DNA of 32,000 bases from Dickeya solani IPO 2222 (GTDB lineage Bacteria > Pseudomonadota > Gammaproteobacteria > Enterobacterales > Enterobacteriaceae), in NCBI RefSeq assembly GCF_001644705.1, contig NZ_CP015137.1, positions 270,001 to 302,000 on the forward strand, read 5' to 3'. This document shows positions 9,749 to 22,853 of this stretch, piece by piece. Position 1 is the first letter of the stretch; every line of letters starts with the position of its first letter. The translations under genes and the position numbers were made by a program. The notes beneath the pieces were generated by a model. That model was not told where the DNA came from. It worked only from the letters and a program-made list of their open reading frames with translations, and ran no database searches.

Positions 9749-10250
9749 AGTGGCACCTTACAGTTTGTTTCACTGACCGTGCGACCCAAAGTCGACGGTG
9801 TTTTGTTCACAAATGAGGTTTGGCTTCCTTAGTAAGCCGTAACGCAGGTGGAATGAAAAAAGCCGATGCGAAGTTGGCGCGGTCGCCTTTACTGGCATCA
9901 CGGCGCGTTCGGCATCGGCGTTGAAGAATGGAGCGGGAATCACTCCGTGGACCATATCGCAACAAACAGAGGACAGTGAGAAAATGAAGCGGGAGGGAGA
10001 GCCTCCGCATCGATGAAGCGGTAAATACGGGCGAATTTGCTGACTATTCCGTCCAGGGAAGGACTCTACCATTCGCACTCCTCACTGTGACAATGACTAT
10101 TCGGGTGAATAATGATTGACCGTATCAGGCACCCGACATCTGAGGATGAAATTACCGCCCACAAATGTCATTAAGATGACAGTGCTATATTTTACCCCAA
10201 CCTGGCAAGTATTTTCACATTGTCATAACATAAAACTATGAGCTAGATTT

Positions 10251-10847: not shown

Positions 10848-11570
10848 TTAAACGTCACTCATTAATTTCGCACGCAGACGCTTTATCGCCTGGCTATGCA
10901 ACTGACTAACGCGCGACTCCCCGACTTCCAGAACTGCCCCAATCTCCTTTAGGTTCAGTTCTTCCTGATAATAGAGGGTCAACACCATTTTCTCTCGCTC
11001 TGGTAGGCTTTCAATCGCGTCCATCACTCGCTGGCGTAAATTCACGTCCAGCAGTTGATTTAACGGATTCGCGTCCTCATTTCCTTCCAGTAACGCCTCA
11101 GCGCTATCTCCATGCTCTTCCCGCCATTCATCGTAAGAAAACAACTGGCTATTGTTGGTATCCAGAAGAATCTGGCGATACTCCTCCAGCGAGATATTCA
11201 GGGTTTGGGCCACTTCCTGTTCGGTAGGAGCCCGGCCGAGTGACTGTTCAGTCTGCTGCATTGCCTGCGCGACTTCCCGGGCGTTACGCCTGACACTGCG
11301 TGGCGCCCAGTCCCGGCTGCGCAGCTCATCCAGCATCGCGCCACGAATACGTTGCACGGCATAGGTGGTAAATGCCGTGCCTTGCAACGAATCATAACGT
11401 TCTACGGCACTGAGCAGCCCGATCCCCCCCGCTTGCAGGAGATCATCGAGCTCGACGCTTGCCGGAAGACGAACCTGTAAACGTAAGGCTTCATGGCGCA
11501 CCAGGGGAACATAGCGCTTCCATAATGAATTTTTATCCATTGTGCCTTCAGCGGTATACAGTTCGCTCAC
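10848..11570 (-). CDS. fliA: Flagellar sigma factor FliA (sigma28)
   Basis: SELYTAEGTMDKNSLWKRYVPLVRHEALRLQVRLPASVELDDLLQAGGIGLL... is more than 80% identical by eye to E. coli FliA. It uses a GTG start, as in E. coli. Confidence 0.97.
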   Translation of the reverse strand: MSELYTAEGTMDKNSLWKRYVPLVRHEALRLQVRLPASVELDDLLQAGGIGLLSAVERYDSLQGTAFTTYAVQRIRGAMLDELRSRDWAPRSVRRNAREVAQAMQQTEQSLGRAPTEQEVAQTLNISLEEYRQILLDTNNSQLFSYDEWREEHGDSAEALLEGNEDANPLNQLLDVNLRQRVMDAIESLPEREKMVLTLYYQEELNLKEIGAVLEVGESRVSQLHSQAIKRLRAKLMSDV

Positions 11571-11871: not shown

Positions 11872-13299
11872 TTAGCTATTAAGCTTATTGCCATATTTTT
11901 CAATAAGATAATCTTTATATTTCGAATAGCGGTTTTGCGCATCCTTGATAGTAGTGACCACCCAGGCGAATGAGCTTTCTCTGTGATTGACATCACAGAC
12001 AAAAGACGCATCAATCCGCGCAATATGGGTTGATTTTCCCACCCCATCCAGAACGGAAGATAATGCAACCTGATCCAAAAACCAGACTGCATTATTCTTC
12101 ATCAAATTATTCCATATAAACAAAGCAACTTTTTTGATAAATCGTCTGGATTCCTCGCCACCGTTAAGGTAAACAAATCCGGCAATGGCTTTTTCCCAGA
12201 ACGGCGAACTTTCGCTTTTCGTCAAAGCAATATCCGCTGACGCAATAGTCTGCTCGACAAATAGCCAGCCATTCTTCATCAGGCAATCCGCATCAACAAT
12301 AATCAACGGCCCGTTGACGATAGGCAACAGATAATTGGCCGCAACAAACCGTCTGCAAGCATAGTGCACATTAATACCGAAAACATCAGCAATCGGTTCA
12401 GCCGTACAGGAAATATTCAGTTCAGGAAACTGTGTACGTTTCGCGTTGATATCATCAGCCGTCACCTCGTCAATATTATAGACGTGAAGGTGTACATTGA
12501 ATTTTTCACGGTTGGTTTCATAAAGTGAGTAAATCAGATGTACGGCATGCTGATGATAATATTTAACATCACACGCAATCAGTATGGTGGGTTTATCATT
12601 ATCATGATTTCTTTTATGTAACCATCGATAATGCTCATAACTGACGTTCTCTGTTTTCGATACCAGTGAACTGAAATCAATATATGAATCAGGATAACCA
12701 CCACTCTTGAATATGGTCGAGACGATCATCAGCAACGTCAGCGGGTCTTCACCAATAAGATAGGCGTTGGCGGTCATTCTTTTGACGAGCAACAGCGCAT
12801 ACTCGTAATCGTCTTCCAGAATACAGGTGAGCAGCAAAATCTTAAAAATAACAGGCACATCCTGTAGAGCGTCCAGGTTGTTCTCAATCAGAGCGACGGC
12901 ATGTTCTATCGCGCCAATCCGGAACAGCAACTGGATAGAGGCGACCAGATATTCAAGATTCGGCGCCAGCTCTAATACGTCGCTAAGATAACTGACAACA
13001 CTGTCGATATACTCGGCCGGCATATGCACCTGCTGACCGCTCCATTTTTCATCTAGCGCCAGATTAGACAAGGCAATCGCATTCAGCAGCAACTTCAGTG
13101 CGCGATCCTGCGCCTCCGGCAAATTGCTCTGGTTGGCAGCCAGATTTTTGTTCAGGGCATAAATATCGCAGCTTCTATTGACAATTACATCAACGACAAT
13201 CTCTTTCGGCAGGTTGCCAATATCGCCAATCATCAACTCCCGGCTGAACACATCCCGATAATATTGATGTGTCGATTTTACATGCGTGTAATCCGCCAT
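11872..13299 (-). CDS. Two-domain protein: N-terminal helical domain of unknown function plus a C-terminal GT-A fold (GT8-like) nucleotide-diphospho-sugar transferase
   Basis: The C-terminal half has GT8-like landmarks: ILIACDVKYYHQHAVHLIYSL (compare LgtC IVFAADDNYAAYL), a HLHVYN strand, YACRRFVAANYL, and a DxD motif in LIIVDADCL (nt 12286-12294). The ATG at 13299 has an AAGG upstream (the ORF-track TTG at 13305 is rejected). The coding call is firm; the function is inferred. Confidence 0.7.
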   Translation of the reverse strand: MADYTHVKSTHQYYRDVFSRELMIGDIGNLPKEIVVDVIVNRSCDIYALNKNLAANQSNLPEAQDRALKLLLNAIALSNLALDEKWSGQQVHMPAEYIDSVVSYLSDVLELAPNLEYLVASIQLLFRIGAIEHAVALIENNLDALQDVPVIFKILLLTCILEDDYEYALLLVKRMTANAYLIGEDPLTLLMIVSTIFKSGGYPDSYIDFSSLVSKTENVSYEHYRWLHKRNHDNDKPTILIACDVKYYHQHAVHLIYSLYETNREKFNVHLHVYNIDEVTADDINAKRTQFPELNISCTAEPIADVFGINVHYACRRFVAANYLLPIVNGPLIIVDADCLMKNGWLFVEQTIASADIALTKSESSPFWEKAIAGFVYLNGGEESRRFIKKVALFIWNNLMKNNAVWFLDQVALSSVLDGVGKSTHIARIDASFVCDVNHRESSFAWVVTTIKDAQNRYSKYKDYLIEKYGNKLNS

Positions 13300-13366
13300 A
13301 AACAACCTTCAATTCATTGTATTTACTGTTACGGCAACATGATCAGACATATTACAGAATGCCTTT

Positions 13367-13402: not shown

Positions 13403-14488
13403 TCAGTTGTCCACCGGGATAAAGAACATGATGGTCTCAGCCCACCCTTCGGTATAGTGGCGCAGATGAATGCGATAATCATTCCGCAGGCTCAGGATAT
13501 ATTCGGGAATCTTCCAGAAGTCAGTCGGATAATGATAAACCGCCACCGCCAGTTTCGGGTGGTCATCCAGAATATGCTGTTTCATTCCGGTCAGCGCGGC
13601 AATTTCCGCCCCCTCCAGATCCAGCTTGATAAAAGTAACGGGCTCATTAACTACGCTATCCAGCGTCGCCACTTCAATTTTTACGTTCCCTTCTTCCGAA
13701 ATATGGCTGGCGGAGCCATCGCCCGAGGAAAAGCTCAGCGTCGTATTCCGATCGAACAATCCAAGCGGATGATAGGTAACGCCATGCAGATGCTGCATAT
13801 TCTTCTTAGCCAGAACCAGTGTATCGCTGCCCGGCTCGAAGAAATGGATGCCGCCATACCCTGGGCAACGTTTGGCGAATTCCAGGCTGGTAAAGCCATC
13901 AAACCCGCCGCCATCAACAAAAACTTCGCCATCGGAAAACGCAACGAACGGTTCGAAATACTGTCTGTCGACACAGAAATCGTATTTATCGATCGCGGCC
14001 AGATTGGCCTCCAGACGAAAACGCAAGATATCGTCAAATACCTGACGGGATTCATCATCGACCAGCAGCCCACGGATCCACTCGAATTTCGCAGTGTTGG
14101 TCGTATACTCTTTACGCATATCGGTAATGCATTCAAGCTGGGGAACCGCGCCGTGGCTCAGATCGGCAAACGCGAAATAGTCCATCACCTCATTGACGCC
14201 TGCCGCTTTCAGTTTTTCCACGCCGGTTCTGGGGCGGGAATTGGTCACAGCAGACACCACCATGCAGTCCTTCTCGATTTGATTCAGGCGCAGCACCGGC
14301 TTTCCCAGCCATGTCGTCAGGTCGGTATATTCGTCAATAAAACCGTCGACCGGCGCGACTCTGGCGACGGCCTCCGCATACTGGTTAACGCCCAGTACAT
14401 AGTGTTTAACACCATCGGCACGGGTAAACCGCTCAAAAAAGTCAGCTGGTGCGCTGTTCGCGGCCGCAGGCTTACTGGCTGTATTCAT
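13403..14488 (-). CDS. FkbM-family SAM-dependent methyltransferase
   Basis: The C-terminal half VFVDGGGFDGFTSLEFAK...FFEP....L..N...........LG..........(S)....FIKLDLEGAEIAAL is the FkbM (Methyltransf_21) pattern. The ATG at 14488 has a GGAGAG 8 nt upstream; the ORF-track GTG at 14545 is less likely. Confidence 0.85.
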   Translation of the reverse strand: MNTASKPAAANSAPADFFERFTRADGVKHYVLGVNQYAEAVARVAPVDGFIDEYTDLTTWLGKPVLRLNQIEKDCMVVSAVTNSRPRTGVEKLKAAGVNEVMDYFAFADLSHGAVPQLECITDMRKEYTTNTAKFEWIRGLLVDDESRQVFDDILRFRLEANLAAIDKYDFCVDRQYFEPFVAFSDGEVFVDGGGFDGFTSLEFAKRCPGYGGIHFFEPGSDTLVLAKKNMQHLHGVTYHPLGLFDRNTTLSFSSGDGSASHISEEGNVKIEVATLDSVVNEPVTFIKLDLEGAEIAALTGMKQHILDDHPKLAVAVYHYPTDFWKIPEYILSLRNDYRIHLRHYTEGWAETIMFFIPVDN

Positions 14489-14607
14489 TCGTCTTCTCTC
14501 CAATACTTTCTGATATCGTAATGAGTCATCACCCTCATCATGCACCGCTCCGCCATGGTGTTGTCAGCAAACGCGGCCTTACCAGTAAAAGTTTAGTGAC
14601 AGTAACA

Positions 14608-14618
14608 CCGGGTGATCT
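14608..14618. repeat. Copy 2 of the intergenic 11-mer CCGGGTGATCT (followed by CTaAACC)
   Basis: An exact repeat of 13367-13377, in the 191-nt spacer between the oxidoreductase and FkbM genes. Confidence 0.5.
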
Positions 14619-14679
14619 CTAAACCGATACAGTACAAAATCAGCAACACATTGATTTATATATTTATCAGATCACAGAT

Positions 14680-15813
14680 TTACTCCGTGATCCGAACCTT
14701 CTCTCCTTTATGCGCGCTGGCGGCGGCGGCCTGGAGATAACGAATACCGCGCATCGCAACATCGGCGCCAAACACATACTCGCACGCGCCTTCTTTCAGA
14801 TAAGAAGCAATGTCCTCGTAGTAATTGGCGAACGCTTCGATAAATCCGGCGGGGTGGCCGGCTTTAAAACGGTTGTAGCGTGGCTGCGATGCGATCAGGT
14901 TATCCGGGTGCGTTCTGTCGATCACGCAAGAGACGCCGTTGATATTGCTGAGCTTCAAATGCTCAGGGTCCATCTGCAACCATTCTGCCGATCCTTTGCT
15001 GCCATAAACCCGGATACGCAGCCCGTTGCGGTAACCCAGCGCCGCCTTGGTGTACCAGTAATTGCACACCACCTGATTGGTGTAACCGGAAATGCAGTGA
15101 ACCGTATCCACCACATCTGGGATTTCGCCGAACCGATGGTGCACCGCGTACACATCCTGCGCCTGCTCGCCAATAATGTAATCCACCATCTGATGGGCAT
15201 GCACCCCCAGATCCAGCGACACGGTAGGGATCACGCCGTCATGCTGGCGCCAGTCCTGCGGACGCGGCACCGCCCCGCTTTTCACATGACGCAGAAAGCC
15301 TTCCTGAGGCATTTCAACCATGACCTGCCGGATCTGCCCCAGCTCGCCATCGGCGATCCGCTGTTTCAGTTCCCTGACCATCGGGTAACCGGAATAATTG
15401 AAGGTAACCAGCAGCGTCCCGTTCATTTTTTCCAGCGCATGCTGAATCTCAGCCACTTCCTCCACGCTGGTTGCCAGCGACTTCTCACAGATCACCGGCA
15501 ATTGATGCTCAATACAGGCAATCACAATATCTTTATGCGTCGGCGTCGGTGTCAAAATAACGACCGCATCCAGTTTGCTGGCTTCCGCGTGCAAAAAGCT
15601 GGTCAGATCGCGGTACACGCGATCTTCATGAATTCCCCAACTGGCGGCGGTTTGCTGATTGATGTCATCATGGCGGCTGAAAAACCCCGATACCAGCTCG
15701 AACTGGCCATCCATCTGCGAAGCAATCTTGTGCGTTTCACCGATTGCCGAATTAATGCCCCCGCCGATGAAGCCGACTTTTAATGCCTCACCGTTGTTTG
15801 TCATGCTTTTCAT
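14680..15813 (-). CDS. Gfo/Idh/MocA-family NAD(P)-dependent oxidoreductase (sugar dehydrogenase-type)
   Basis: N-terminal Rossmann motif LKVGFIGGGINSAIGETH, then VVILTPTPTHKDIVIACIEHQLPVICEKSL (the family's EKP-like motif). Its ATG overlaps the upstream gene's TGA (ATGA, 15810-15813), indicating translational coupling. Confidence 0.88.
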   Translation of the reverse strand: MKSMTNNGEALKVGFIGGGINSAIGETHKIASQMDGQFELVSGFFSRHDDINQQTAASWGIHEDRVYRDLTSFLHAEASKLDAVVILTPTPTHKDIVIACIEHQLPVICEKSLATSVEEVAEIQHALEKMNGTLLVTFNYSGYPMVRELKQRIADGELGQIRQVMVEMPQEGFLRHVKSGAVPRPQDWRQHDGVIPTVSLDLGVHAHQMVDYIIGEQAQDVYAVHHRFGEIPDVVDTVHCISGYTNQVVCNYWYTKAALGYRNGLRIRVYGSKGSAEWLQMDPEHLKLSNINGVSCVIDRTHPDNLIASQPRYNRFKAGHPAGFIEAFANYYEDIASYLKEGACEYVFGADVAMRGIRYLQAAAASAHKGEKVRITE

Positions 15814-16997
15814 TTCTCTTTCCCCAGAAAAGAGTGGCTCACCACCAGATGGTGTTTCAGGTTTCCGGTATTTTTTAGCAGATGCGCTTTATCATTGAAG
15901 GTCATAAAGACGACGGCAGCCCGATCGCCTGGCGCCGGATTCAGCACTTCGCCGCTTTTTTTCAGCACGACACTCTCCAGTAATTCACCGGGCAACTGGT
16001 GATAACGCAGCGCGTTAAAGATCGTTTTTTCAGACACCGATACGGTATGTCTGGCTACATAATGGCGGGCCGCCGGCCGCTTATTGGCGAATGTCGACGG
16101 CAGCGATAAAAAAGGCGCCACAAAGTATTCCGCATAAGGGATATCGGTGGAGTAACGAATCAGCTGGCAATATAAATCGCCCGGGCAGCGCCGGGTCAGT
16201 TCGATCAGCCAAAAATCGTCGCCATTGGCGATAAATTGCGTATGCAGCAAGCCGTCACATAACTTCAGGTCGGCAACAATACTGTTGATGCAGTCACTGA
16301 CGGCATTTTTCAGCGTTTCACTCATTTGATGAGCCACACAGCTGCTGTTCACCTGATAAGGGTAGACGGTGCAATATTCATCAACAAAGAACTCACAGAC
16401 AATCTCGCCATTACGAATGAACGCCGAATGGCTGTGCAGCGATCCCTGCTTGAACTCTTCTATTACCACCTGGCCGCTTACCGATGCCGACGCGGCCGAC
16501 TGGTAAGCCGGCAGAATATCCTGCTCACGCTGAACCTGGGTAATACCGCGGCCACTGTAGGCATCGACAGGCTTGACCAGAATCGGATACGACAGTTGCC
16601 CCACCGACTCAATGTCACGCACCGCCTTAGGAATCGGCAGTCCCTTACGCTGCGCATAAGCACGAAACACATCCTTTTTCAGCAGGATCGCCGTTGTCTC
16701 AACCGAATCGAAACCGGGCATGCCCAGCGATTGCGCAACCCAGGCGCCGGTTTCGTAAGAGACATCCGTCACTCCGGGCAAAATAGCCTTAATATTTTTC
16801 TTTCTGACAATGCCGAGAATGGCCTCTTTGTCCGAATAATCTTCGACAATCGACCGGGTTGCCCGGATATGACCAGGATCGCCGGGTTTACCACTGCACA
16901 CACCAATCGCAACGCCCTGTTCCAGGCACGCCTCCAGCAGAGGCAGCGCCGAAAAACCCGCATCAAGCATTAAGGCATCTATAGTCGACATATCCAT
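15810..16997 (-). CDS. ATP-grasp domain ligase (carbamoyl-phosphate-synthase-like / carboxylate-amine ligase type)
   Basis: FRAYAQRKGLPIPK...YPILVKPVDAYSGRGITQV...VVIEEFKQG...WLIELTRRCPGD follows the ATP-grasp layout: the K of the B-loop region, an EE.. hinge, and E/N-type Mg ligand positions. Confidence 0.85.
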   Translation of the reverse strand: MDMSTIDALMLDAGFSALPLLEACLEQGVAIGVCSGKPGDPGHIRATRSIVEDYSDKEAILGIVRKKNIKAILPGVTDVSYETGAWVAQSLGMPGFDSVETTAILLKKDVFRAYAQRKGLPIPKAVRDIESVGQLSYPILVKPVDAYSGRGITQVQREQDILPAYQSAASASVSGQVVIEEFKQGSLHSHSAFIRNGEIVCEFFVDEYCTVYPYQVNSSCVAHQMSETLKNAVSDCINSIVADLKLCDGLLHTQFIANGDDFWLIELTRRCPGDLYCQLIRYSTDIPYAEYFVAPFLSLPSTFANKRPAARHYVARHTVSVSEKTIFNALRYHQLPGELLESVVLKKSGEVLNPAPGDRAAVVFMTFNDKAHLLKNTGNLKHHLVVSHSFLGKEK

Positions 16998-17077
16998 TCT
17001 CTGTTACCAATATTTTCTCAGGCTTCCCGCTGCGACAGGGAACACGCACGCCCCCTGGGGCGAGAGCAACCTGTCAC

Positions 17078-18205
17078 TTAACGCACGTTTTCACTCAATG
17101 TGCGCCCAATAATCTCAATGATGCGGTCCTGATCGCCGGTTTCCAGCCCCGGATAAATGGGCAGACACAGCACAGCGTTGGCGATGTCGGTCGCTACCGG
17201 CAAATTCTCGGCGCTCGCGCTGCCAAGGCCGCGGTACATCGGGAAACTGCTGATCAACGGGTAGAAATACCGGCGTGACATGATGCCGTGCTCTTTTAAG
17301 GCGCCATAAAGTTTCTCGCGCACATCGAACGAGTAATCATTAACAAAAAGCGGGAAATAGGCATAATTCCAGTCAATTGAATCCGGCACGCTCAGCGTCC
17401 TGATGCTATTAATCTGAGCCAGCCCGTCACGGTAATAGCGGTAAATGCGTTTCCTGTCTTCCAGCGCCTGATCGATATAATTCAGTTGCAATAAGCCAAA
17501 CGCCGCCTGCACTTCGTTCATTTTGCCGTTAATGCCGGGGGCAACCACGGTGGTTTCATCCGCAAAGCCGAAGTTTTTCAGATAATCGATCCGTTTCTTC
17601 ATTTTGGCGTCGGGACAAATAATGGCGCCGCCTTCAATGGTGTTGAACACCTTGGTCGCATGGAAACTCAGAATCGAGAGATCGCCATAATTCAGAATAC
17701 TGTCGCCATCCTTTTTCACACCGAAAGAGTGTGCGGCGTCATAAATCACCTTCAGGCCGTAGACATCCGCAATATTCTGGATTCGATCAACATCGCAAGG
17801 AATACCATAACAGTGGACGGGCAGAATGGCGGAGGTGAGCGGCGTAATCGCTTCTTCAATCTTTTTGGGATCCAGGTTGCAGGTAACCGGATCAATATCG
17901 ACAAAGACAGGCTTGAGGTTATTCCACAATAACGAGTGAGATGTCGCCACAAACGAGTAAGGCGTGGTGATGACTTCGCCGGTGATGCGCAACGCCTGCA
18001 GCGCCGTCAGCAGCGCCAGCGTGCCGTTCGTGAACAGACACAGATGTTTAACGCCCAGATATTCAGCCAGAGCGTGCTCAAGCTGCTGGTGAAAAGGTCC
18101 GCCGTTCGTCAGATATTTGTTATCCCATATCTTTTCCAGATAGGGCGTAAATTCATCAAGCGGTGGCAGTAAAGGGCTCGTTACATAGATGTTCTTGCTC
18201 ATCAT
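17078..18205 (-). CDS. DegT/DnrJ/EryC1/StrS-family PLP-dependent sugar aminotransferase (WecE-like)
   Basis: FTNGTLALLTALQAL, VITTPYSFVATSHS, VIYDAAHSFG, and the PLP-lysine motif LSILSFHATKVFNTIEGGAI (compare E. coli WecE FSFHETKNYTAGGEGG). Confidence 0.92.
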   Translation of the reverse strand: MMSKNIYVTSPLLPPLDEFTPYLEKIWDNKYLTNGGPFHQQLEHALAEYLGVKHLCLFTNGTLALLTALQALRITGEVITTPYSFVATSHSLLWNNLKPVFVDIDPVTCNLDPKKIEEAITPLTSAILPVHCYGIPCDVDRIQNIADVYGLKVIYDAAHSFGVKKDGDSILNYGDLSILSFHATKVFNTIEGGAIICPDAKMKKRIDYLKNFGFADETTVVAPGINGKMNEVQAAFGLLQLNYIDQALEDRKRIYRYYRDGLAQINSIRTLSVPDSIDWNYAYFPLFVNDYSFDVREKLYGALKEHGIMSRRYFYPLISSFPMYRGLGSASAENLPVATDIANAVLCLPIYPGLETGDQDRIIEIIGRTLSENVR

Positions 18206-18330: not shown

Positions 18331-21300
18331 TTATGATTCGTTTTCCCAGTCAATGCTGAATGTTCTGGGCTCGTTTCCTTCGCAATAAATCTGCCACGCG
18401 TTGCGTATTGCGCGTTCAAAATAAATGGACGGCGACAAAACGGAATTCATTCTGGCGGCGATACGCCCACGGATTCCGGCGCGCACGTCACTGAGTTTTT
18501 CCAGTGATTGACGCCAGTACAGCGCCTTTTGTACAAACTCGTCTTCTTCCGTCGCGATAAAGTCATCCAGCCCCAGAATACGCATGGTGACGCTGCCTTG
18601 ACGTGAGGCGATGGACTCGCCTTCACGGGTCAGCACCGGCACGCCCATCCAGGCGGCGTGACTCACCGTGGTTCCACCGGTATACGGATAGGTATCCAGC
18701 AACAGGTCCACTTCACGGTGCATTCCCAGATATTCTTTCAGCCCGGTCCGCATGCGGAAAGACAGTTGCTCTTCCTTCACCCCGAACTCGACTAACCGAT
18801 CGCGGAAGTAGTCGATGGTTTCCTGACCCGTCATGTACCCCATGATCAGCCGGGAATCCGGCATCGCCGTCAACACCTTGGCCCACAGGGCCAGCGTTTC
18901 GTCAGTAATTTTCTGCGGACGATTGAAACTGGCAAACGTCAGATAACCGTTTTTCAATGCCGGCAGTTCATTCACTTCCGGGCTATCTTTGACCGGTTCA
19001 AAATATTTCACCGAAGGCAGATAAATGATTTTTTCCGTCAGGTACGGATCGAGCGCGCCCCCCTGGATGTAATGCAAATCAAGCAGGATGTAATCAACGC
19101 TCTTCATACCTGTCGTGCCGGGATAACCAATCCAGGTCATCTGGATCGGTGCGGGTTTCAGCGCCAACACCGGCAACCGGTTATAAGCCGTATGCCCGGA
19201 CAGATCGATCAGGATGTCGATTTCGTCCTTATTGATGAGTGTCGCCAGTTCGAGGTCGCCCATTTTGTCGACATCATGCCAGCCAGCCACGGTCTGTTTT
19301 AGGCTCTCGGCCTTTTCATCGTTACGTTGAAAACTTGAGTAGGCGTAAAGCGAGAACACGCTTCGATCAAGCGAATTCCAGATAGGCTCCAGGAAATTCG
19401 TCACCGGATGGTCGCCAAAGTCGCCGGAAATAAAACCAATGCGTAGCGGGCGCTGTGTTGCTTTATCAAGGGAGTAGGCAAACTGGCAGTGATAGCGCTC
19501 GGCCGCTTCTTCCACCCGCTGACCGAATACAAGGTGCTCCTGAAACAGCTCCTGTGGCGTCACGTTGACATCGTGGGACAGCCCCAGCAGCAGGTTGCTG
19601 TACAGGTGAAACGCCTGAGGCATCAACTCAATGGTCTTACGGTGGTACTGGATGGCGTCCTTCCGCCCCAGATTATGGCACACCATCCCCATATGGCTGA
19701 TAAAGTTGGGGTTTTCTGGCTCAATCTGCAGCGCCTTCTCCATGCACTTAAACGCTGAATCCAGTCTATGGGTGATATTCAACAAAATCGCCAGCGTGTC
19801 CCACGCCAGCCCTTTTTGCTTATCACAACGCAATACTTTTCTGGTCAGCGCCATGCCCTGATGCAGTTCGTTCTTTTTCCAGAAGCACACCGCCAGATCA
19901 ATATAAAAATCCCAGTTGAAAGGCATCAGCGCGATTGCTCTGGTAATGATGCTCAGCGCGCCATCAAAATCGCCGGTACGGACATAGGTGTTCACGAAGG
20001 GATACCAAACCCACAGGTTGTCGGGATAGGTACTGATAATCTCTTCCGCTTTTGTTCTGACATCGGCAAACTGCCCCAGTGTAGTTAGCCGATCAATCTC
20101 TTCGTACACCTTCCGGTTGAGCGGGTTTCTATCCTGCGGCTTATTCTTTTTATGTGTCGACGATTTTTCCGGCTCAACAAAGCCGCCCGCAGTGGTTTCG
20201 CTGGTGTACATCACCAGCGACTGGATATAAACAGCAACCTGCCCGGCATCCGCCTGCACGATCGCTTCCTGCAAGCAGTCCCGCCACGCGCGTGGCGTTC
20301 CCCATATCAGGCCTTTATTACGCAGCGCCCAGAGCTGGCTATAAAACGCCTTATCCTTGTTCAGGGTCGGTGATGATAGCTGTTGCAGGAACTGCCGTTC
20401 GTCACTATCAAGCGACACCGGTTCATGCCAGAAATTGAATGACAGATCGGTCGTGGCAATGCCGGGCAACCCAGCCAGCGTCTTATGCCGGCTGTTTCGG
20501 TAAGTACAATTCCCCATCCGCGTGTAGATGCCATTGATCCCTTTCACAAAAAGGTTCTTTAACGCCTCCAGCACATTCTGCCGATGATTCTCCACTTCTT
20601 TTTCCGGCAACTGGGTATTAAAGACCAATTGATCCAGAGTCAAACTGGCAGGCCAGGCCTCCCCCAACGCATCCAGAATACTTAGTACCACTGGGTTTTC
20701 CGTGCTGATGGTTTCACCACTACTGGAGGTATGGACATTCAGCGTACTGCCATTGCTTGCTGTAACGCGTTGAAAATTTCCCGCCCAGTTGAAATCCGCC
20801 AGCCTGGAAAGATCGGGTTCCGGCAGCACCGCCTCCGCCCTCTCCTGTGGAACCAACATACTGAAGCGCTGGGAACGGTTAACGGCGAAATCAAGATATT
20901 GCTGGCGCAGATAGGTGGTATTTTCAGGGCAAATCGTCTCGTGCAAGCGCGAAACCTGATCGCCGTAATGCCCCGCCAGTTCAGTGTAGGCGCGAACATC
21001 GCCGACATAGGCAAAGCCGGTTTGGGTAATCTGTGAATAGAAATCAACGAAGTAGCAAGGCTGATTCAGCCCCTGCAGATAATGCAGCGCGAAATCCACA
21101 TCGGACTGTTTTTCGGCTTGTTCAATAAAGGTTTTCAGCGCTGCATTCTGGGGGTTATCCGGGGACGTTCCCAAAGACAGGTAAGTCAGCATCGCGCGGG
21201 CGCTGGCTTGTGCCGTATTTTCATCACTGGCGAGGCTGCTGTGAAGCTGAATAGCGTCCCGTAGGATTTCGCCGGTCTTCCAACCGGGATAAGTGTTGTA

Positions 21301-21783
21301 GCAATAGCAGACGATACCTTCCGCAGTCAGATGCTCGCTGCAGAATCGCAGCAGTGCTTCCCGCGTCTCACCACCGATAAGACTGAACAGACCGTGGACA
21401 ATGATGTAATCGAATTTTCCGGGATCGCAAGCCAGCAGAGATTCGAGATCCAGAGCAAATAACGCGATATTGCCCAGTTCGAGCTGTTTTATCAGCGTAC
21501 AGCCTTTTTCAATTTGCTCCGCATCAAGATCAACCCCGACAGACTGCGACTGTGGATTCGCCAGCGCAAAAGGCAGCAAATTGCCGCCATCCTTACACCC
21601 GATCTCAAGCACGCGCGCATTTTCCGGTACAGCCGATGTGATGCCATAAAGATGTGCAGTGGCTTGCAGATGGAAAGGTGCGGTGTAAGGAACAGGAGGG
21701 GCCATCGAACTCAACGGAGTTTTACCAGTATCTTCACCCAGGTCGTCATTATTCGCTAAAGGTTGTGTATCTGGCATGGTCAC
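18331..21783 (-). CDS. 1150-aa fusion protein: class I SAM methyltransferase, a ~390-aa middle region of unknown function (possibly a methyltransferase-regulatory-type domain), TPR repeats, and a GT41 (O-GlcNAc-transferase/SPINDLY-like) glycosyltransferase
   Basis: SAM motif I is VLEIGCKDGGN (aa 58-68). TPR-like helices span about aa 560-735. The GT41 landmarks are LRIGFISGDFGDHPV, IDLSGHTAYNRLPVLALKPAPIQMTWIGYPGTTG, TFASFNRPQKIT (compare OGT FNQLYKI with the catalytic Lys) and LDTYPYTGGTTVSHAAWMGVPVLT (compare OGT [24 protein letters not shown]). The GTG at 21783 has a GAGGGA 8 nt upstream; an alternative ATG lies at 21777. Confidence 0.88.
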   Translation of the reverse strand: MTMPDTQPLANNDDLGEDTGKTPLSSMAPPVPYTAPFHLQATAHLYGITSAVPENARVLEIGCKDGGNLLPFALANPQSQSVGVDLDAEQIEKGCTLIKQLELGNIALFALDLESLLACDPGKFDYIIVHGLFSLIGGETREALLRFCSEHLTAEGIVCYCYNTYPGWKTGEILRDAIQLHSSLASDENTAQASARAMLTYLSLGTSPDNPQNAALKTFIEQAEKQSDVDFALHYLQGLNQPCYFVDFYSQITQTGFAYVGDVRAYTELAGHYGDQVSRLHETICPENTTYLRQQYLDFAVNRSQRFSMLVPQERAEAVLPEPDLSRLADFNWAGNFQRVTASNGSTLNVHTSSSGETISTENPVVLSILDALGEAWPASLTLDQLVFNTQLPEKEVENHRQNVLEALKNLFVKGINGIYTRMGNCTYRNSRHKTLAGLPGIATTDLSFNFWHEPVSLDSDERQFLQQLSSPTLNKDKAFYSQLWALRNKGLIWGTPRAWRDCLQEAIVQADAGQVAVYIQSLVMYTSETTAGGFVEPEKSSTHKKNKPQDRNPLNRKVYEEIDRLTTLGQFADVRTKAEEIISTYPDNLWVWYPFVNTYVRTGDFDGALSIITRAIALMPFNWDFYIDLAVCFWKKNELHQGMALTRKVLRCDKQKGLAWDTLAILLNITHRLDSAFKCMEKALQIEPENPNFISHMGMVCHNLGRKDAIQYHRKTIELMPQAFHLYSNLLLGLSHDVNVTPQELFQEHLVFGQRVEEAAERYHCQFAYSLDKATQRPLRIGFISGDFGDHPVTNFLEPIWNSLDRSVFSLYAYSSFQRNDEKAESLKQTVAGWHDVDKMGDLELATLINKDEIDILIDLSGHTAYNRLPVLALKPAPIQMTWIGYPGTTGMKSVDYILLDLHYIQGGALDPYLTEKIIYLPSVKYFEPVKDSPEVNELPALKNGYLTFASFNRPQKITDETLALWAKVLTAMPDSRLIMGYMTGQETIDYFRDRLVEFGVKEEQLSFRMRTGLKEYLGMHREVDLLLDTYPYTGGTTVSHAAWMGVPVLTREGESIASRQGSVTMRILGLDDFIATEEDEFVQKALYWRQSLEKLSDVRAGIRGRIAARMNSVLSPSIYFERAIRNAWQIYCEGNEPRTFSIDWENES

Positions 21784-21946: not shown

Positions 21947-21980
21947 AATAAAAAACCAACCCCGAAGGGTTGGCTTTTTT
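21947..21980. terminator. fliC Rho-independent terminator (bidirectional architecture)
   Basis: AAATAAAAAA-CCAACCC-CGAA-GGGTTGG-CTTTTTT. Read on the minus strand, it lies ~30 nt after the fliC stop and is followed by TTTTTTATTT. Confidence 0.85.
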
Positions 21981-22010: not shown

Positions 22011-22853
22011 TTACTGCAGCAGTTTCAGAACGGTCTGCGGTACCTGGTTAGCCTGAGCCAGTACAGAAGTACCAGCCTGCTGCAGAATCTGCGCACGGCT
22101 CATGTTAGATACTTCGGTCGCGTAGTCAGCATCCTGGATACGGCTACGTGCGTTGCTCAGGTTGTTGATGGTGTTGCCCAGGTTCTGGATGGTAGACTCG
22201 AAGCGGTTCAGCGTCGCACCGATGTTCGCTTTAGCGGTGTTGATGGTCTGCAGAGCAGTATCAATCGCGGCAACGAGCGCAGTAGAACCTGCTGCTGTAG
22301 ACACGTCGGTATTGGTAGTGGTGATACCCAGGCCGCCGCTGGTGGCGTTGATCAGTGCAGAGCTACCAACAGAGATGGCATCGTTAGCGGTGGTGCCAGA
22401 ACCAACCTGGATGTTGAAACCAGTAGCGTTGACGGAACCGTCCAGCAGAGCTTTACCGTTGAAGTTCGCGCTAGCGGCAACACGGTTGATTTCGTCAACA
22501 CGACGGTTGATTTCAGTCTGGATAGCAGTACGGTCGTTAGTACCGTTGGTGTCGTTCGCTGCCTGTACGGCCAGCTCACGGATACGCTGCAAGTTGTCGT
22601 TGATGGTGTCCAGGTTACCTTCAGCGGTATTTACCAGAGATACGCCGTCGTTAGCATTTTTGGAAGCCTGAGTCAGACCCTTGATCTGAGCAGTCATACC
22701 GTTAACGATACCAGAACCGGCTGCGTTGTCTTTGGCGCTGTTGATAGCCAGGCCAGAGGACAGACGTTCGATAGCAGTCTGCAGGGAAGATTGAGATTTG
22801 TTCAGGTTGGTCTGGGCCAACAGCGACATACTGTTAGTATTAATGACTGCCAT
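22011..22853 (-). CDS. fliC: Flagellin FliC, short form (280 aa; D0/D1 core with a ~55-aa Ser/Thr-rich central segment)
   Basis: The N-terminus MAVINTNSMSLLAQTNLNKSQSSLQTAIERLSSGLAINSAKDNAAG and the C-terminus RSRIQDADYATEVSNMSRAQILQQAGTSVLAQANQVPQTVLKLLQ are canonical flagellin D0/D1. An AGGA Shine-Dalgarno lies 8 nt upstream. Confidence 0.96.
   Translation of the reverse strand: MAVINTNSMSLLAQTNLNKSQSSLQTAIERLSSGLAINSAKDNAAGSGIVNGMTAQIKGLTQASKNANDGVSLVNTAEGNLDTINDNLQRIRELAVQAANDTNGTNDRTAIQTEINRRVDEINRVAASANFNGKALLDGSVNATGFNIQVGSGTTANDAISVGSSALINATSGGLGITTTNTDVSTAAGSTALVAAIDTALQTINTAKANIGATLNRFESTIQNLGNTINNLSNARSRIQDADYATEVSNMSRAQILQQAGTSVLAQANQVPQTVLKLLQ

Follow-up and report, generated by a model that had tools for sequence, protein, structure and literature searches.

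The stretch of DNA considered here, which we call the window, is 32,000 nucleotides of Dickeya solani IPO 2222 (contig NZ_CP015137.1, positions 270,001 to 302,000), and the system in question is a run of four genes within an island that lies between the flagellar genes fliA and fliC. We propose, with a probability of about 0.6, that the four genes form the core set of sugar-tailoring genes in the flagellin glycosylation island of Dickeya, and that two of them, encoding an ATP-grasp ligase and a Gfo/Idh/MocA oxidoreductase (hereafter Gfo), work as a pair that does not make a dTDP-derived amino sugar but acylates one. The island is already known as a unit; the ATP-grasp/Gfo pair is an uncharacterised, widely distributed cassette. 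A first-pass annotation of the same DNA had described an amino-sugar tailoring module for the flagellin glycan with its nucleotide-sugar precursor steps encoded elsewhere, and that description is supported. The four genes, and the junction between the two members of the pair, are as follows:

13403..14545, minus strand: FkbM-family S-adenosylmethionine (SAM) methyltransferase (PF05050 and TIGR01444)
14680..15813, minus strand: Gfo/Idh/MocA NAD(P) oxidoreductase (three Pfam domains)
15810..16997, minus strand: predicted ATP-grasp carboxylate-amine ligase (AlphaFold fold and weak Pfam and NCBIfam matches)
17078..18205, minus strand: DegT-family pyridoxal phosphate (PLP) aminotransferase, DesI/VioA-like (PF01041)
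15810..15813, minus strand: ATGA stop/start overlap of the ATP-grasp and Gfo genes (read from the sequence)

These four middle open reading frames (ORFs) lie at 13403-18205, all on the minus strand, where the first-pass annotation had placed them, and the Gfo/Idh/MocA, DegT, ATP-grasp and FkbM families it named are confirmed by Pfam and NCBIfam matches and by the AlphaFold fold. It had found no RmlA/RmlB-like or acetyltransferase gene, which holds for the whole 32-kb window: with all ORFs examined, the window contains no RmlA, RmlB, nucleotidyltransferase of any kind, 4,6-dehydratase or acetyltransferase. We also looked for a dehydratase or nucleotidyltransferase domain hidden inside the four ORFs, which the annotation had named as evidence that would count against it, and detected none.

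We compared the cassette across 80 loci from GTDB genomes, collected with an ATP-grasp alignment, and 80 further loci from metagenomes, collected with a Gfo alignment. Counts are given over 155 loci (labelled L plus a number), with rmlA, rmlB and fdtA scored within 10 kb; for the Gfo-selected metagenome loci, a flank filter of at least 2.6 kb on both sides leaves n=31. At least 155 loci, spread over many phyla, contain the pair; they include non-flagellar O-antigen and capsule clusters, and a flagellin gene is present in only 27 of the 155. Its other surroundings include ABC-transporter O-antigen-like clusters (Wzm, Wzt), Wzx-type clusters, rml-linked clusters of Rhizobium, and the non-flagellate Fibrobacter and Prochlorococcus.

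The ATP-grasp and Gfo genes travel together throughout this sample. Among the 74 GTDB loci that have both, the two are adjacent and codirectional in 71, the ATP-grasp gene comes first in 64, and a 4-bp overlap is frequent. In the window the Gfo start codon (ATG, 15813-15811) overlaps the ATP-grasp stop codon (TGA, 15812-15810), so the ATGA overlap noticed earlier is real; it is a translational coupling of the two genes, and the recurrent arrangement bears out the first-pass suggestion that they act as a pair. In the flank-filtered metagenome loci, which were selected by Gfo, an ATP-grasp gene is adjacent in 24 of 31 and nearby in one more. Five of the 31 carry a variant cassette in the order DegT, 226-amino-acid (aa) protein, ~517-aa protein, Gfo, ~95-aa protein. 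Of its products, that of 226 aa is a left-handed beta-helix (LbH) N-acyltransferase of the NeuD/PglB/VioB family (153 bits), that of ~517 aa an AMP-forming ligase and that of ~95 aa a phosphopantetheine (PP)-binding carrier, so that the Gfo gene stands between those for the AMP-ligase and the acyl carrier protein (ACP). These domains were confirmed on L163 and L153, and L087 keeps the ligase-Gfo-carrier core. A carboxylate-activating system therefore adjoins the Gfo gene in 30 of the 31 loci. The loci with this variant cassette are L087, L143, L153, L163, L166 and L167, and a fusion of GT2 with a radical-SAM domain, or an FkbM gene, often follows the variant cassette.

Because Gfo accompanies ATP-grasp, and accompanies the VioB-like acyltransferase, AMP-ligase and ACP where ATP-grasp is missing, we assign it to the acylation step and infer that its reaction is a redox step, either on the acyl group or on the acid from which that group derives. 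A non-sugar substrate for the oxidoreductase thus becomes more likely than a sugar, and the first-pass annotation had itself listed such a substrate as counting against its proposal. The protein has the three domains PF01408, PF02894 and PF22725 (all three ~68 bits), and an alignment of 20 diverse homologues shows G17-G18, C109-E110-K111 and D201-x3-H205 to be invariant, with the EK lysine and the D-x3-H catalytic residues present. The family profile finds its closest PDB structures in the uncharacterised 3v5n (253 bits), 3dty (187 bits) and 7d5m (177 bits), scores 68 bits against glucose-fructose oxidoreductase, and reaches 47-54 bits against inositol and scyllo-inositol dehydrogenases. Gfo sequences have a median pairwise identity of 48%, and identity to the Dickeya protein is typical of that figure. 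The protein is kept alike in loci with 4-amination, with FdtA-dependent 3-amination and with 2-deoxy sugar routes. In L072, which has a 2,3-dehydratase route, the sugar is served by a separate and unrelated Gfo-type 3-ketoreductase from a different protein cluster.

The ATP-grasp protein has a clear fold and distant relatives. Its Pfam and NCBIfam matches are weak (the best is PurT at 44 bits) and it passed no equivalog model. The AlphaFold model (predicted local distance difference test, pLDDT, 94.9; predicted template-modelling score, pTM, 0.92) has the full three-domain ATP-grasp fold, with the invariant residues K142, E180, E266 and R269-R270-x-P-G-D274. Its nearest Foldseek neighbours are the L-amino-acid ligase 3vot (TM-score 0.77-0.78), PurT (0.75-0.77) and biotin carboxylase, at no more than 18% identity and E values of 1e-21 to 1e-26. 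This modelled fold supports formation of an acyl phosphate followed by attack of an amine, and it does not identify the acid; searches of the PDB by sequence and by fold returned generic relatives only, from which the substrate cannot be read by homology. Since an AMP-ligase, an ACP and a viosamine-type N-acyltransferase substitute for ATP-grasp in the variant loci, amide formation with the sugar amine is likely the task of ATP-grasp. The first-pass idea that it N-acylates the amine thus gains support from the fold, from the lack of an N-acyltransferase in the window and from this substitution, and ATP-grasp is the likely N-acylating enzyme.

The aminotransferase indicates which sugar receives the acyl group. 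DegT matches PF01041 at 340 bits and conserves the PLP-binding lysine within the motif SFHATK, which aligns with the lysine motif of DesI, the 4-aminotransferase of dTDP-4-keto-6-deoxyglucose. Its best NCBIfam model is that of DesI (TIGR04427, 288 bits, below the equivalog cutoff of 650), and it matches the structure of DesI from Streptomyces venezuelae (PDB 2po3) at 221 bits over residues 23-364. Scores against other PDB structures are 166 bits for perosamine synthases, 145 for NtdA, 141 for WbpE and 108 for WecE. The protein is accordingly DesI/VioA-like rather than WecE-like, at 288 bits (NCBIfam) and 221 bits (PDB) against 160-188 and 108 bits for WecE. The DegT proteins of the sampled loci fall into two clean groups, group 1 with 45 loci including the window and group 3 with 21 loci; an FdtA-type 3,4-ketoisomerase is encoded in none of the group-1 loci, as against 18 of the 21 in group 3.

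Group-1 DegT genes are found directly after rmlA-rmlB, in a contiguous rmlA-rmlB-DegT-ATP-grasp-Gfo operon in L038 and L027. The neighbouring RmlA (TIGR01207, 466 bits) and RmlB (TIGR01181, 393-486 bits) proteins score above their cutoffs, and true rmlA and rmlB genes lie right beside the cassette in Prochlorococcus, Campylobacterota, Rhizobium and an alphaproteobacterial metagenome-assembled genome (L040); Cloacimonadota locus L072 has the same rmlA-rmlB arrangement as judged by ORF clustering only. Over the whole sample, rmlA, rmlB or fdtA is present in 57 of 155 loci. These sequence relationships make the window DegT a probable dTDP-4-keto-6-deoxyglucose 4-aminotransferase. Because the enzyme is DesI-like, rmlA-rmlB are linked to the cassette elsewhere, and an rffG-rffH-rfbC-rfbD operon lies elsewhere in the D. 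dadantii 3937 genome (PMC6637903), the substrate would be dTDP-4-keto-6-deoxyglucose supplied in trans. The first-pass annotation had offered this as its alternative, a WecE-like aminotransferase tapping dTDP-4-keto-6-deoxyglucose made elsewhere; the substrate is now the favoured one, and the WecE-like assignment gives way to a DesI/VioA-like one.

The last of the four genes encodes an FkbM protein that passes its family models (TIGR01444, 63 bits, cutoff 37.7; PF05050, 40.7 bits, cutoff 22.7) and matches PDB 2py6 at 81 bits, in keeping with the earlier expectation that the product is methylated after acylation. Of the 155 loci, 75 have an FkbM gene after that for Gfo. Two islands that otherwise match that of the window, in D. 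undicola 2B12 (L004) and in L088, lack it, and from this we take methylation to be dispensable for assembly; absence of FkbM from some islands was also noted by De Maayer and Cowan (PMC4875605). We assign to FkbM a putative accessory role, O-methylation of the acyl group or of the sugar.

Taken together, these assignments would form a pathway in which RffH and RffG, encoded elsewhere, make dTDP-4-keto-6-deoxy-D-glucose, and DegT aminates it at C-4 to give a dTDP-4-amino-4,6-dideoxyhexose, probably viosamine. ATP-grasp would then activate a carboxylic acid as an acyl phosphate and ligate it to the new amine, standing in for an acyl-CoA- or acyl-ACP-dependent N-acyltransferase. Gfo would carry out a redox step on the acid or acyl group, with the evidence suggesting a position after ligation, and would not make the keto sugar for DegT. 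FkbM would add an O-methyl group, after which a tetratricopeptide repeat (TPR)-GT41 glycosyltransferase would place the finished sugar on Ser/Thr residues of FliC and a second transferase, ORF477, would add another residue, probably a hexose. The order of amination, ligation, redox and methylation is proposed because it follows the order of the genes, which are transcribed in the Dickeya island as GT41, DegT, ATP-grasp, Gfo, FkbM and ORF477, and because transposon sequencing (Tn-seq) of D. dadantii 3937 in chicory gave a strong effect for the ATP-grasp gene 03422 (log2 fold change -4.85, q = 0.02) and a mild one for the oxidoreductase gene 03421 (-0.71) (PMC6637903). The Tn-seq table lists 03422 and 03421 as a single operon, and the text of that study reports a growth defect from insertions in only one of the six island genes (PMC6637903).

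The two transferases and the flagellar genes that border the island are located as follows:

18331..21783, minus strand: methyltransferase-TPR-GT41 flagellin glycosyltransferase, Dda3937_03424-like, 1150 aa (PF13844, TPR and methyltransferase domains)
11872..13305, minus strand: ORF477, second transferase, Dda3937_03419-like, helical-repeat and GT8-like GT-A domains, 477 aa (structure model)
22011..22853, minus strand: fliC flagellin, the glycosylated substrate, 280 aa (Flagellin_N and Flagellin_C)
10848..11570, minus strand: fliA (sigma-28), the other island border (Sigma70 r2, r3 and r4), adjoining fliZ

The catalytic half of the GT41 protein (residues 606-1140; 18364-19968, minus strand) is most like plant SPINDLY, at 254 bits, with the human and Xanthomonas OGTs scoring lower. 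SPINDLY O-fucosylates proteins, and a likeness to it would suit an enzyme that transfers a 6-deoxyhexose derivative and not GlcNAc. In the same protein, the N-terminal methyltransferase domain (residues 29-422; 20518-21699, minus strand) resembles Rickettsia PKMT1 (139 bits) and PKMT2 (133 bits). ORF477 has no Pfam match and no PDB sequence match. Its AF2 model (pLDDT 92) places the GT-A domain nearest to retaining GT8, GT6 and GT24 enzymes in Foldseek, which use UDP-Glc or UDP-Gal, and D338-A-D340 is invariant. The ORF477 family is small (66 clusters, mostly Enterobacterales), and five members are fused to an FkbM domain. We considered whether that fused domain is the FkbM of the island and rejected the idea: the two share no significant similarity, and the fusion is uninformative about the target of the island FkbM.

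The transferase roles rest on published mutant masses from D. dadantii 3937 (PMC6637903). Wild-type FliC has a mass of 32170 Da, FliC from the 03419 (ORF477) mutant 31034 Da and FliC from the 03424 (GT41) mutant 28890 Da; the GT41 mutant thus loses the entire ~3.3 kDa modification and the ORF477 mutant carries FliC lighter by 1136 Da (PMC6637903). Were the residue added by ORF477 a hexose, 1136 Da would amount to seven sites (7 x 162.3 Da), with a first residue of ~306 Da. That is larger than acetyl- or hydroxybutyryl-viosamine (187-245 Da) and within the range for viosamine with a C7 acid (~299-319 Da). Other numbers of sites fit the masses too, for example six sites of 357 + 189 Da. The FliC masses are therefore compatible with the proposed pathway and not diagnostic of it, and the acyl group cannot be identified from them.

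A clue to the acid comes from the neighbours of the pair in other organisms. A class-II synthase of 3-deoxy-D-arabino-heptulosonate 7-phosphate (DAHP) is encoded at most four genes from Gfo in 14 of 155 loci (Pfam 574 bits; TIGR01358, 474-610 bits), and four of these also encode a true AroB, 3-dehydroquinate (DHQ) synthase, by its own model (TIGR01357, 321-331 bits, cutoff 305) and not by a DDGS/EEVS model. Stops and starts overlap in these loci, and L072 has the order DegT, DAHP synthase, Gfo, ATP-grasp, DHQ synthase. Their sources are Cloacimonadota, Ignavibacteria, Bacteroidota, Desulfatiglans, Smithella and several metagenomes. The fourteen loci, all polysaccharide or glycan clusters, are L072, L074, L076, L078, L079, L069, L126, L129, L131, L135, L140, L158, L159 and L160. 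At least five sublineages of Gfo are represented in them, with loci devoid of DAHP synthase standing in between, and the identity of these Gfo proteins to that of Dickeya equals the family median. No dehydroquinase, shikimate dehydrogenase or chorismate-using gene was found beside them, in a scan that did not take in all singleton ORFs; the neighbours are instead methyltransferases, transporters, UDP-sugar dehydrogenases and a transposase. To our knowledge, linkage of DAHP synthase and DHQ synthase to this pair has not been reported before.

Because DAHP synthase, sometimes with DHQ synthase, adjoins the pair, and because Gfo resembles cyclitol dehydrogenases, a shikimate-pathway acyl group is suggested. 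Our candidate is an early cyclitol carboxylate of that pathway, 3-dehydroquinate or a quinate-like acid; this is the least certain point of the account, and we hold it tentatively, at somewhat worse than even odds. Some organisms would back the acid with a dedicated DAHP synthase, and Dickeya would draw on its housekeeping aroB. A more specific form, about which we are more doubtful still, is that ATP-grasp, Gfo and in some cases FkbM make a new class of glycan decoration, an O-methylated quinate-like acid derived from reduced 3-dehydroquinate and amide-linked to a 3- or 4-amino-dideoxyhexose. If this were true, Dickeya would show a cyclitol amide on its flagellin, Campylobacterota, Rhizobium, Prochlorococcus, Fibrobacter, Cloacimonadota and others would show one on O-antigens or capsules, and primary aromatic biosynthesis would be the direct source of the acid. 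In some loci, among them L001, L021, L040, L094, L095 and L060, extra enzymes beside the cassette suggest further tailoring of the acyl group: FdtA-type flagellin islands add an Fe-alcohol dehydrogenase, a radical-SAM enzyme and a 332-aa protein without annotation, and the Rhizobium loci, like L060, add an O-methyltransferase together with a protein resembling fatty-acid desaturases. A pathway of the RifL/RifK/RifH/RifG type, leading to 3-amino-5-hydroxybenzoic acid (AHBA), was considered because Gfo, DegT, DAHP synthase and DHQ synthase occur together, and was rejected as the main explanation: DegT scores 97 bits against AHBA synthase and 221 against DesI, and the pair mostly occurs without DAHP synthase.

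The central proposal of the first-pass annotation was that a housekeeping sugar is oxidised and transaminated directly, with Gfo oxidising C-3 of UDP-GlcNAc, UDP-Glc or Glc-6-P and DegT aminating the product, as in GnnA/GnnB, WbpB/WbpE or NtdC/NtdA, so that no 4,6-dehydratase is needed. This would account for the lack of rmlA and rmlB in the window and for the co-occurrence of DegT and Gfo in 109 of 155 loci, and Gfo does match NF040723, a model of archaeal UDP-GlcNAc 3-dehydrogenase, at 67.7 bits; that score, however, is far below the cutoff of 450 and lower than the iolG match. Among 5.8 billion database proteins the names given to relatives of ATP-grasp and Gfo are all generic apart from one automatic label on a Dickeya orthologue, 'glucose-6-phosphate 3-dehydrogenase', which agrees with direct oxidation and which we do not count as evidence. 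Against WlbA the Gfo family profile scores 30.6 bits (3q2i) and 27.3 bits (3q2k) over the NAD domain alone, and DegT is closer to DesI than to WbpE or NtdA. The Gfo gene is coupled to ATP-grasp and not to DegT, and it persists alongside FdtA/FdtB routes: in ~20 loci the only DegT partners FdtA, the keto sugar comes from RmlB and FdtA, and Gfo has no keto-forming role. The contiguous operons of L038 and L027, with rmlA-rmlB adjoining the cassette, the rffG and rffH genes of D. dadantii and the mild Gfo mutant phenotype all point the same way, and we regard direct oxidation and transamination as very improbable.

Two further explanations accept a ligation by ATP-grasp and differ in what Gfo does or in what bond is formed. 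ATP-grasp might add an ordinary amino or hydroxy acid to dTDP-viosamine, after which Gfo would oxidise or epimerise ring C-2 or C-3 and FkbM would methylate a sugar hydroxyl in the manner of VioM. Gfo/Idh/MocA enzymes that act on dTDP-sugars do exist, as in the KijD10-type 3-ketoreductases and in L072, the L-amino-acid ligase 3vot is the best TM-score match of ATP-grasp, and the mild Gfo phenotype suits late tailoring. The modified viosamine of Pseudomonas syringae is 2-O-methylated (PMC3927599), and the Clostridioides difficile type B locus for a peptidyl-Fuc3N uses D-Ala-ligase-like and Ala-dehydrogenase-like genes (PMC5207245). Yet Gfo stays constant at ~48% median identity while the sugar varies among 3-amino, 4-amino and 2-deoxy forms, where ATP-grasp is lacking its gene is flanked by those for the acid-activating enzyme and the carrier, the sugar-type Gfo of L072 belongs to another protein cluster, and DAHP synthase and DHQ synthase beside the pair would be left unexplained; we judge this explanation unlikely, if still worth keeping in view. 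In the other, no simple amide is formed: a PurK-like carboxylation would lead to a methyl carbamate through FkbM, or a MysC-like reaction to an enaminone with a dehydroquinate-derived cyclohexenone made by Gfo and FkbM. ATP-grasp does count PurT, PurK and biotin carboxylase among its nearest relatives by sequence and fold, and the set of DHQ synthase, O-methyltransferase, ATP-grasp and amine resembles mycosporine gene clusters, which encode a DHQS-like cyclase, an O-methyltransferase and the ATP-grasp enzyme MysC. The substitution of ATP-grasp by AMP-ligase, ACP and VioB-like acyltransferase indicates carboxylate activation and an amide instead, the carbamate version leaves Gfo without a role, and the ~160 Da beyond viosamine (if there are seven sites) is more than a methyl carbamate (58 Da) would add, so that we consider this improbable.

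Several observations weigh against acylation of a dTDP-derived amino sugar by the pair, or against parts of it. The literature searched contains no solved flagellin glycan structure for Dickeya or Pectobacterium and no characterisation of an ATP-grasp and Gfo/Idh/MocA pair in glycan loci. Because the DegT score falls below the DesI equivalog cutoff, the sugar could have the gluco or the galacto configuration. The conserved Arg and Lys residues of Gfo may serve to bind either a carboxylate or a nucleotide diphosphate, and if Gfo acted on the acid before ligation its mutant should resemble that of ATP-grasp, which the two Tn-seq values do not. DAHP synthase accompanies the pair in only 14 of 155 loci and is not in the Dickeya island, and the acid could differ by lineage or be any later product of the shikimate pathway. 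Locus L035, labelled Candidatus Gracilibacteria, has intact DegT, ATP-grasp, Gfo and FkbM genes under the standard code with no UGA recoding, and may be mis-binned; if genuine, its host would be expected to lack a shikimate pathway, contrary to a dehydroquinate-derived acid. The mass arithmetic presumes integer and equal site occupancy, and the GT41 protein, given the likeness of its N-terminal domain, might also methylate FliC lysines and so confound the published mass differences.

The island itself has been described in D. dadantii 3937, where Dda3937_03419 to 03424 are the same six genes between fliA and fliC (Royet et al. 2018, PMC6637903). The published names of the four middle genes are generic ('carbamoyl phosphate synthase', 'oxidoreductase') and that study proposes no pathway (PMC6637903). 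A catalogue of flagellin glycosylation islands (FGIs) is available (De Maayer & Cowan 2016, PMC4875605), with the ATP-grasp and oxidoreductase genes absent from its text. The window has the features of an enterobacterial FGI, namely the position between fliA and fliC and a flagellin glycosyltransferase gene; modification of the flagellin itself has been demonstrated only in D. dadantii 3937. In the database, ATP-grasp shares 98% identity with a D. dadantii cluster, and Gfo likewise 98% with one that bears the name of D. dianthicola. The window differs from the D. dadantii 3937 cluster in lacking its two reported transposase genes, with none between the GT41 gene and fliC.

The gene order of the window is betI-betB-betA, rpiB, a methyl-accepting chemotaxis protein (MCP) gene, phoH, fliZ, fliA, the six island genes, fliC, fliDST and fliE-J. 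Two ORFs before betA, at 10-1089 (with a Lon_C domain) and 1141-1755, received no family assignment, and a 102-aa ORF at 9770-10078 (minus strand), between phoH and fliZ, has no Pfam or NCBIfam match. A strong terminator-like hairpin with a 13-bp stem and a T-run lies at 21950-21979 (minus strand), directly downstream of fliC, and separates fliC from the GT41 gene. A promoter scan returned sites no commoner than in shuffled controls.

Flagellin glycosylation adds to the fitness of Dickeya in plants and to maceration: celery maceration was reduced in a glycosylation mutant of D. dadantii 3937, and of the island genes that for ATP-grasp alone shows a significant defect in Tn-seq (PMC6637903). 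Our analysis gives the oxidoreductase the ligase as its partner instead of the aminotransferase and leads to a defined question, namely which acid is installed on dTDP-amino sugars, for which the DAHP and DHQ synthase linkage supplies a concrete hypothesis. If that hypothesis is true, the pair would make a new class of substituent for bacterial glycans and tie surface-antigen diversity to the shikimate pathway.

Comparison with known systems places the proposed pathway among those for N-acylated amino-dideoxyhexoses. The flagellin glycan of Burkholderia cenocepacia, Qui4N(3-hydroxybutanoyl), follows the same overall logic. So does the viosamine island of P. syringae (VioA, VioB, the acyl-ACP enzymes VioR/VioS, and VioM), which shares 4-amination, N-acylation, O-methylation and transfer to flagellin (PMC3927599). 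In Dickeya, ATP-grasp would replace VioB and acyl-ACP, Gfo would replace the FabG/FabH-type enzymes, and the acyl group is probably not 3-hydroxybutyrate. The variant loci without ATP-grasp do use an acyltransferase of the VioB family. WbpB/WbpE, GnnA/GnnB and NtdC/NtdA (or RifL/RifK) draw on the same Gfo/Idh/MocA and DegT superfamilies; neither Dickeya enzyme is close to them, however, its Gfo and DegT are not a coupled unit, and a 4,6-dehydratase route is supported. The C. difficile type B locus likewise serves a flagellin amino-dideoxyhexose with a complex N-acyl group, with an ATP-grasp-type ligase, an NAD dehydrogenase and rml genes located elsewhere; there an FdtB-like aminotransferase is used and Fuc3N is acylated by taurinyl-Ala-Gly (PMC5207245). 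It differs from the Dickeya island in that its dehydrogenase is from another family, its sugar is a 3-amino sugar and no orthology to the Dickeya pair is detectable. For the ligation itself the nearest parallels are PurT, the formate-dependent glycinamide ribonucleotide (GAR) transformylase, and the L-amino-acid ligases BL00235 and RizA, which convert a carboxylate and ATP to an acyl phosphate that is attacked by an amine; the Dickeya enzyme stands apart from them in its low identity (at most 18%) and in its acceptor, which would be a nucleotide sugar.

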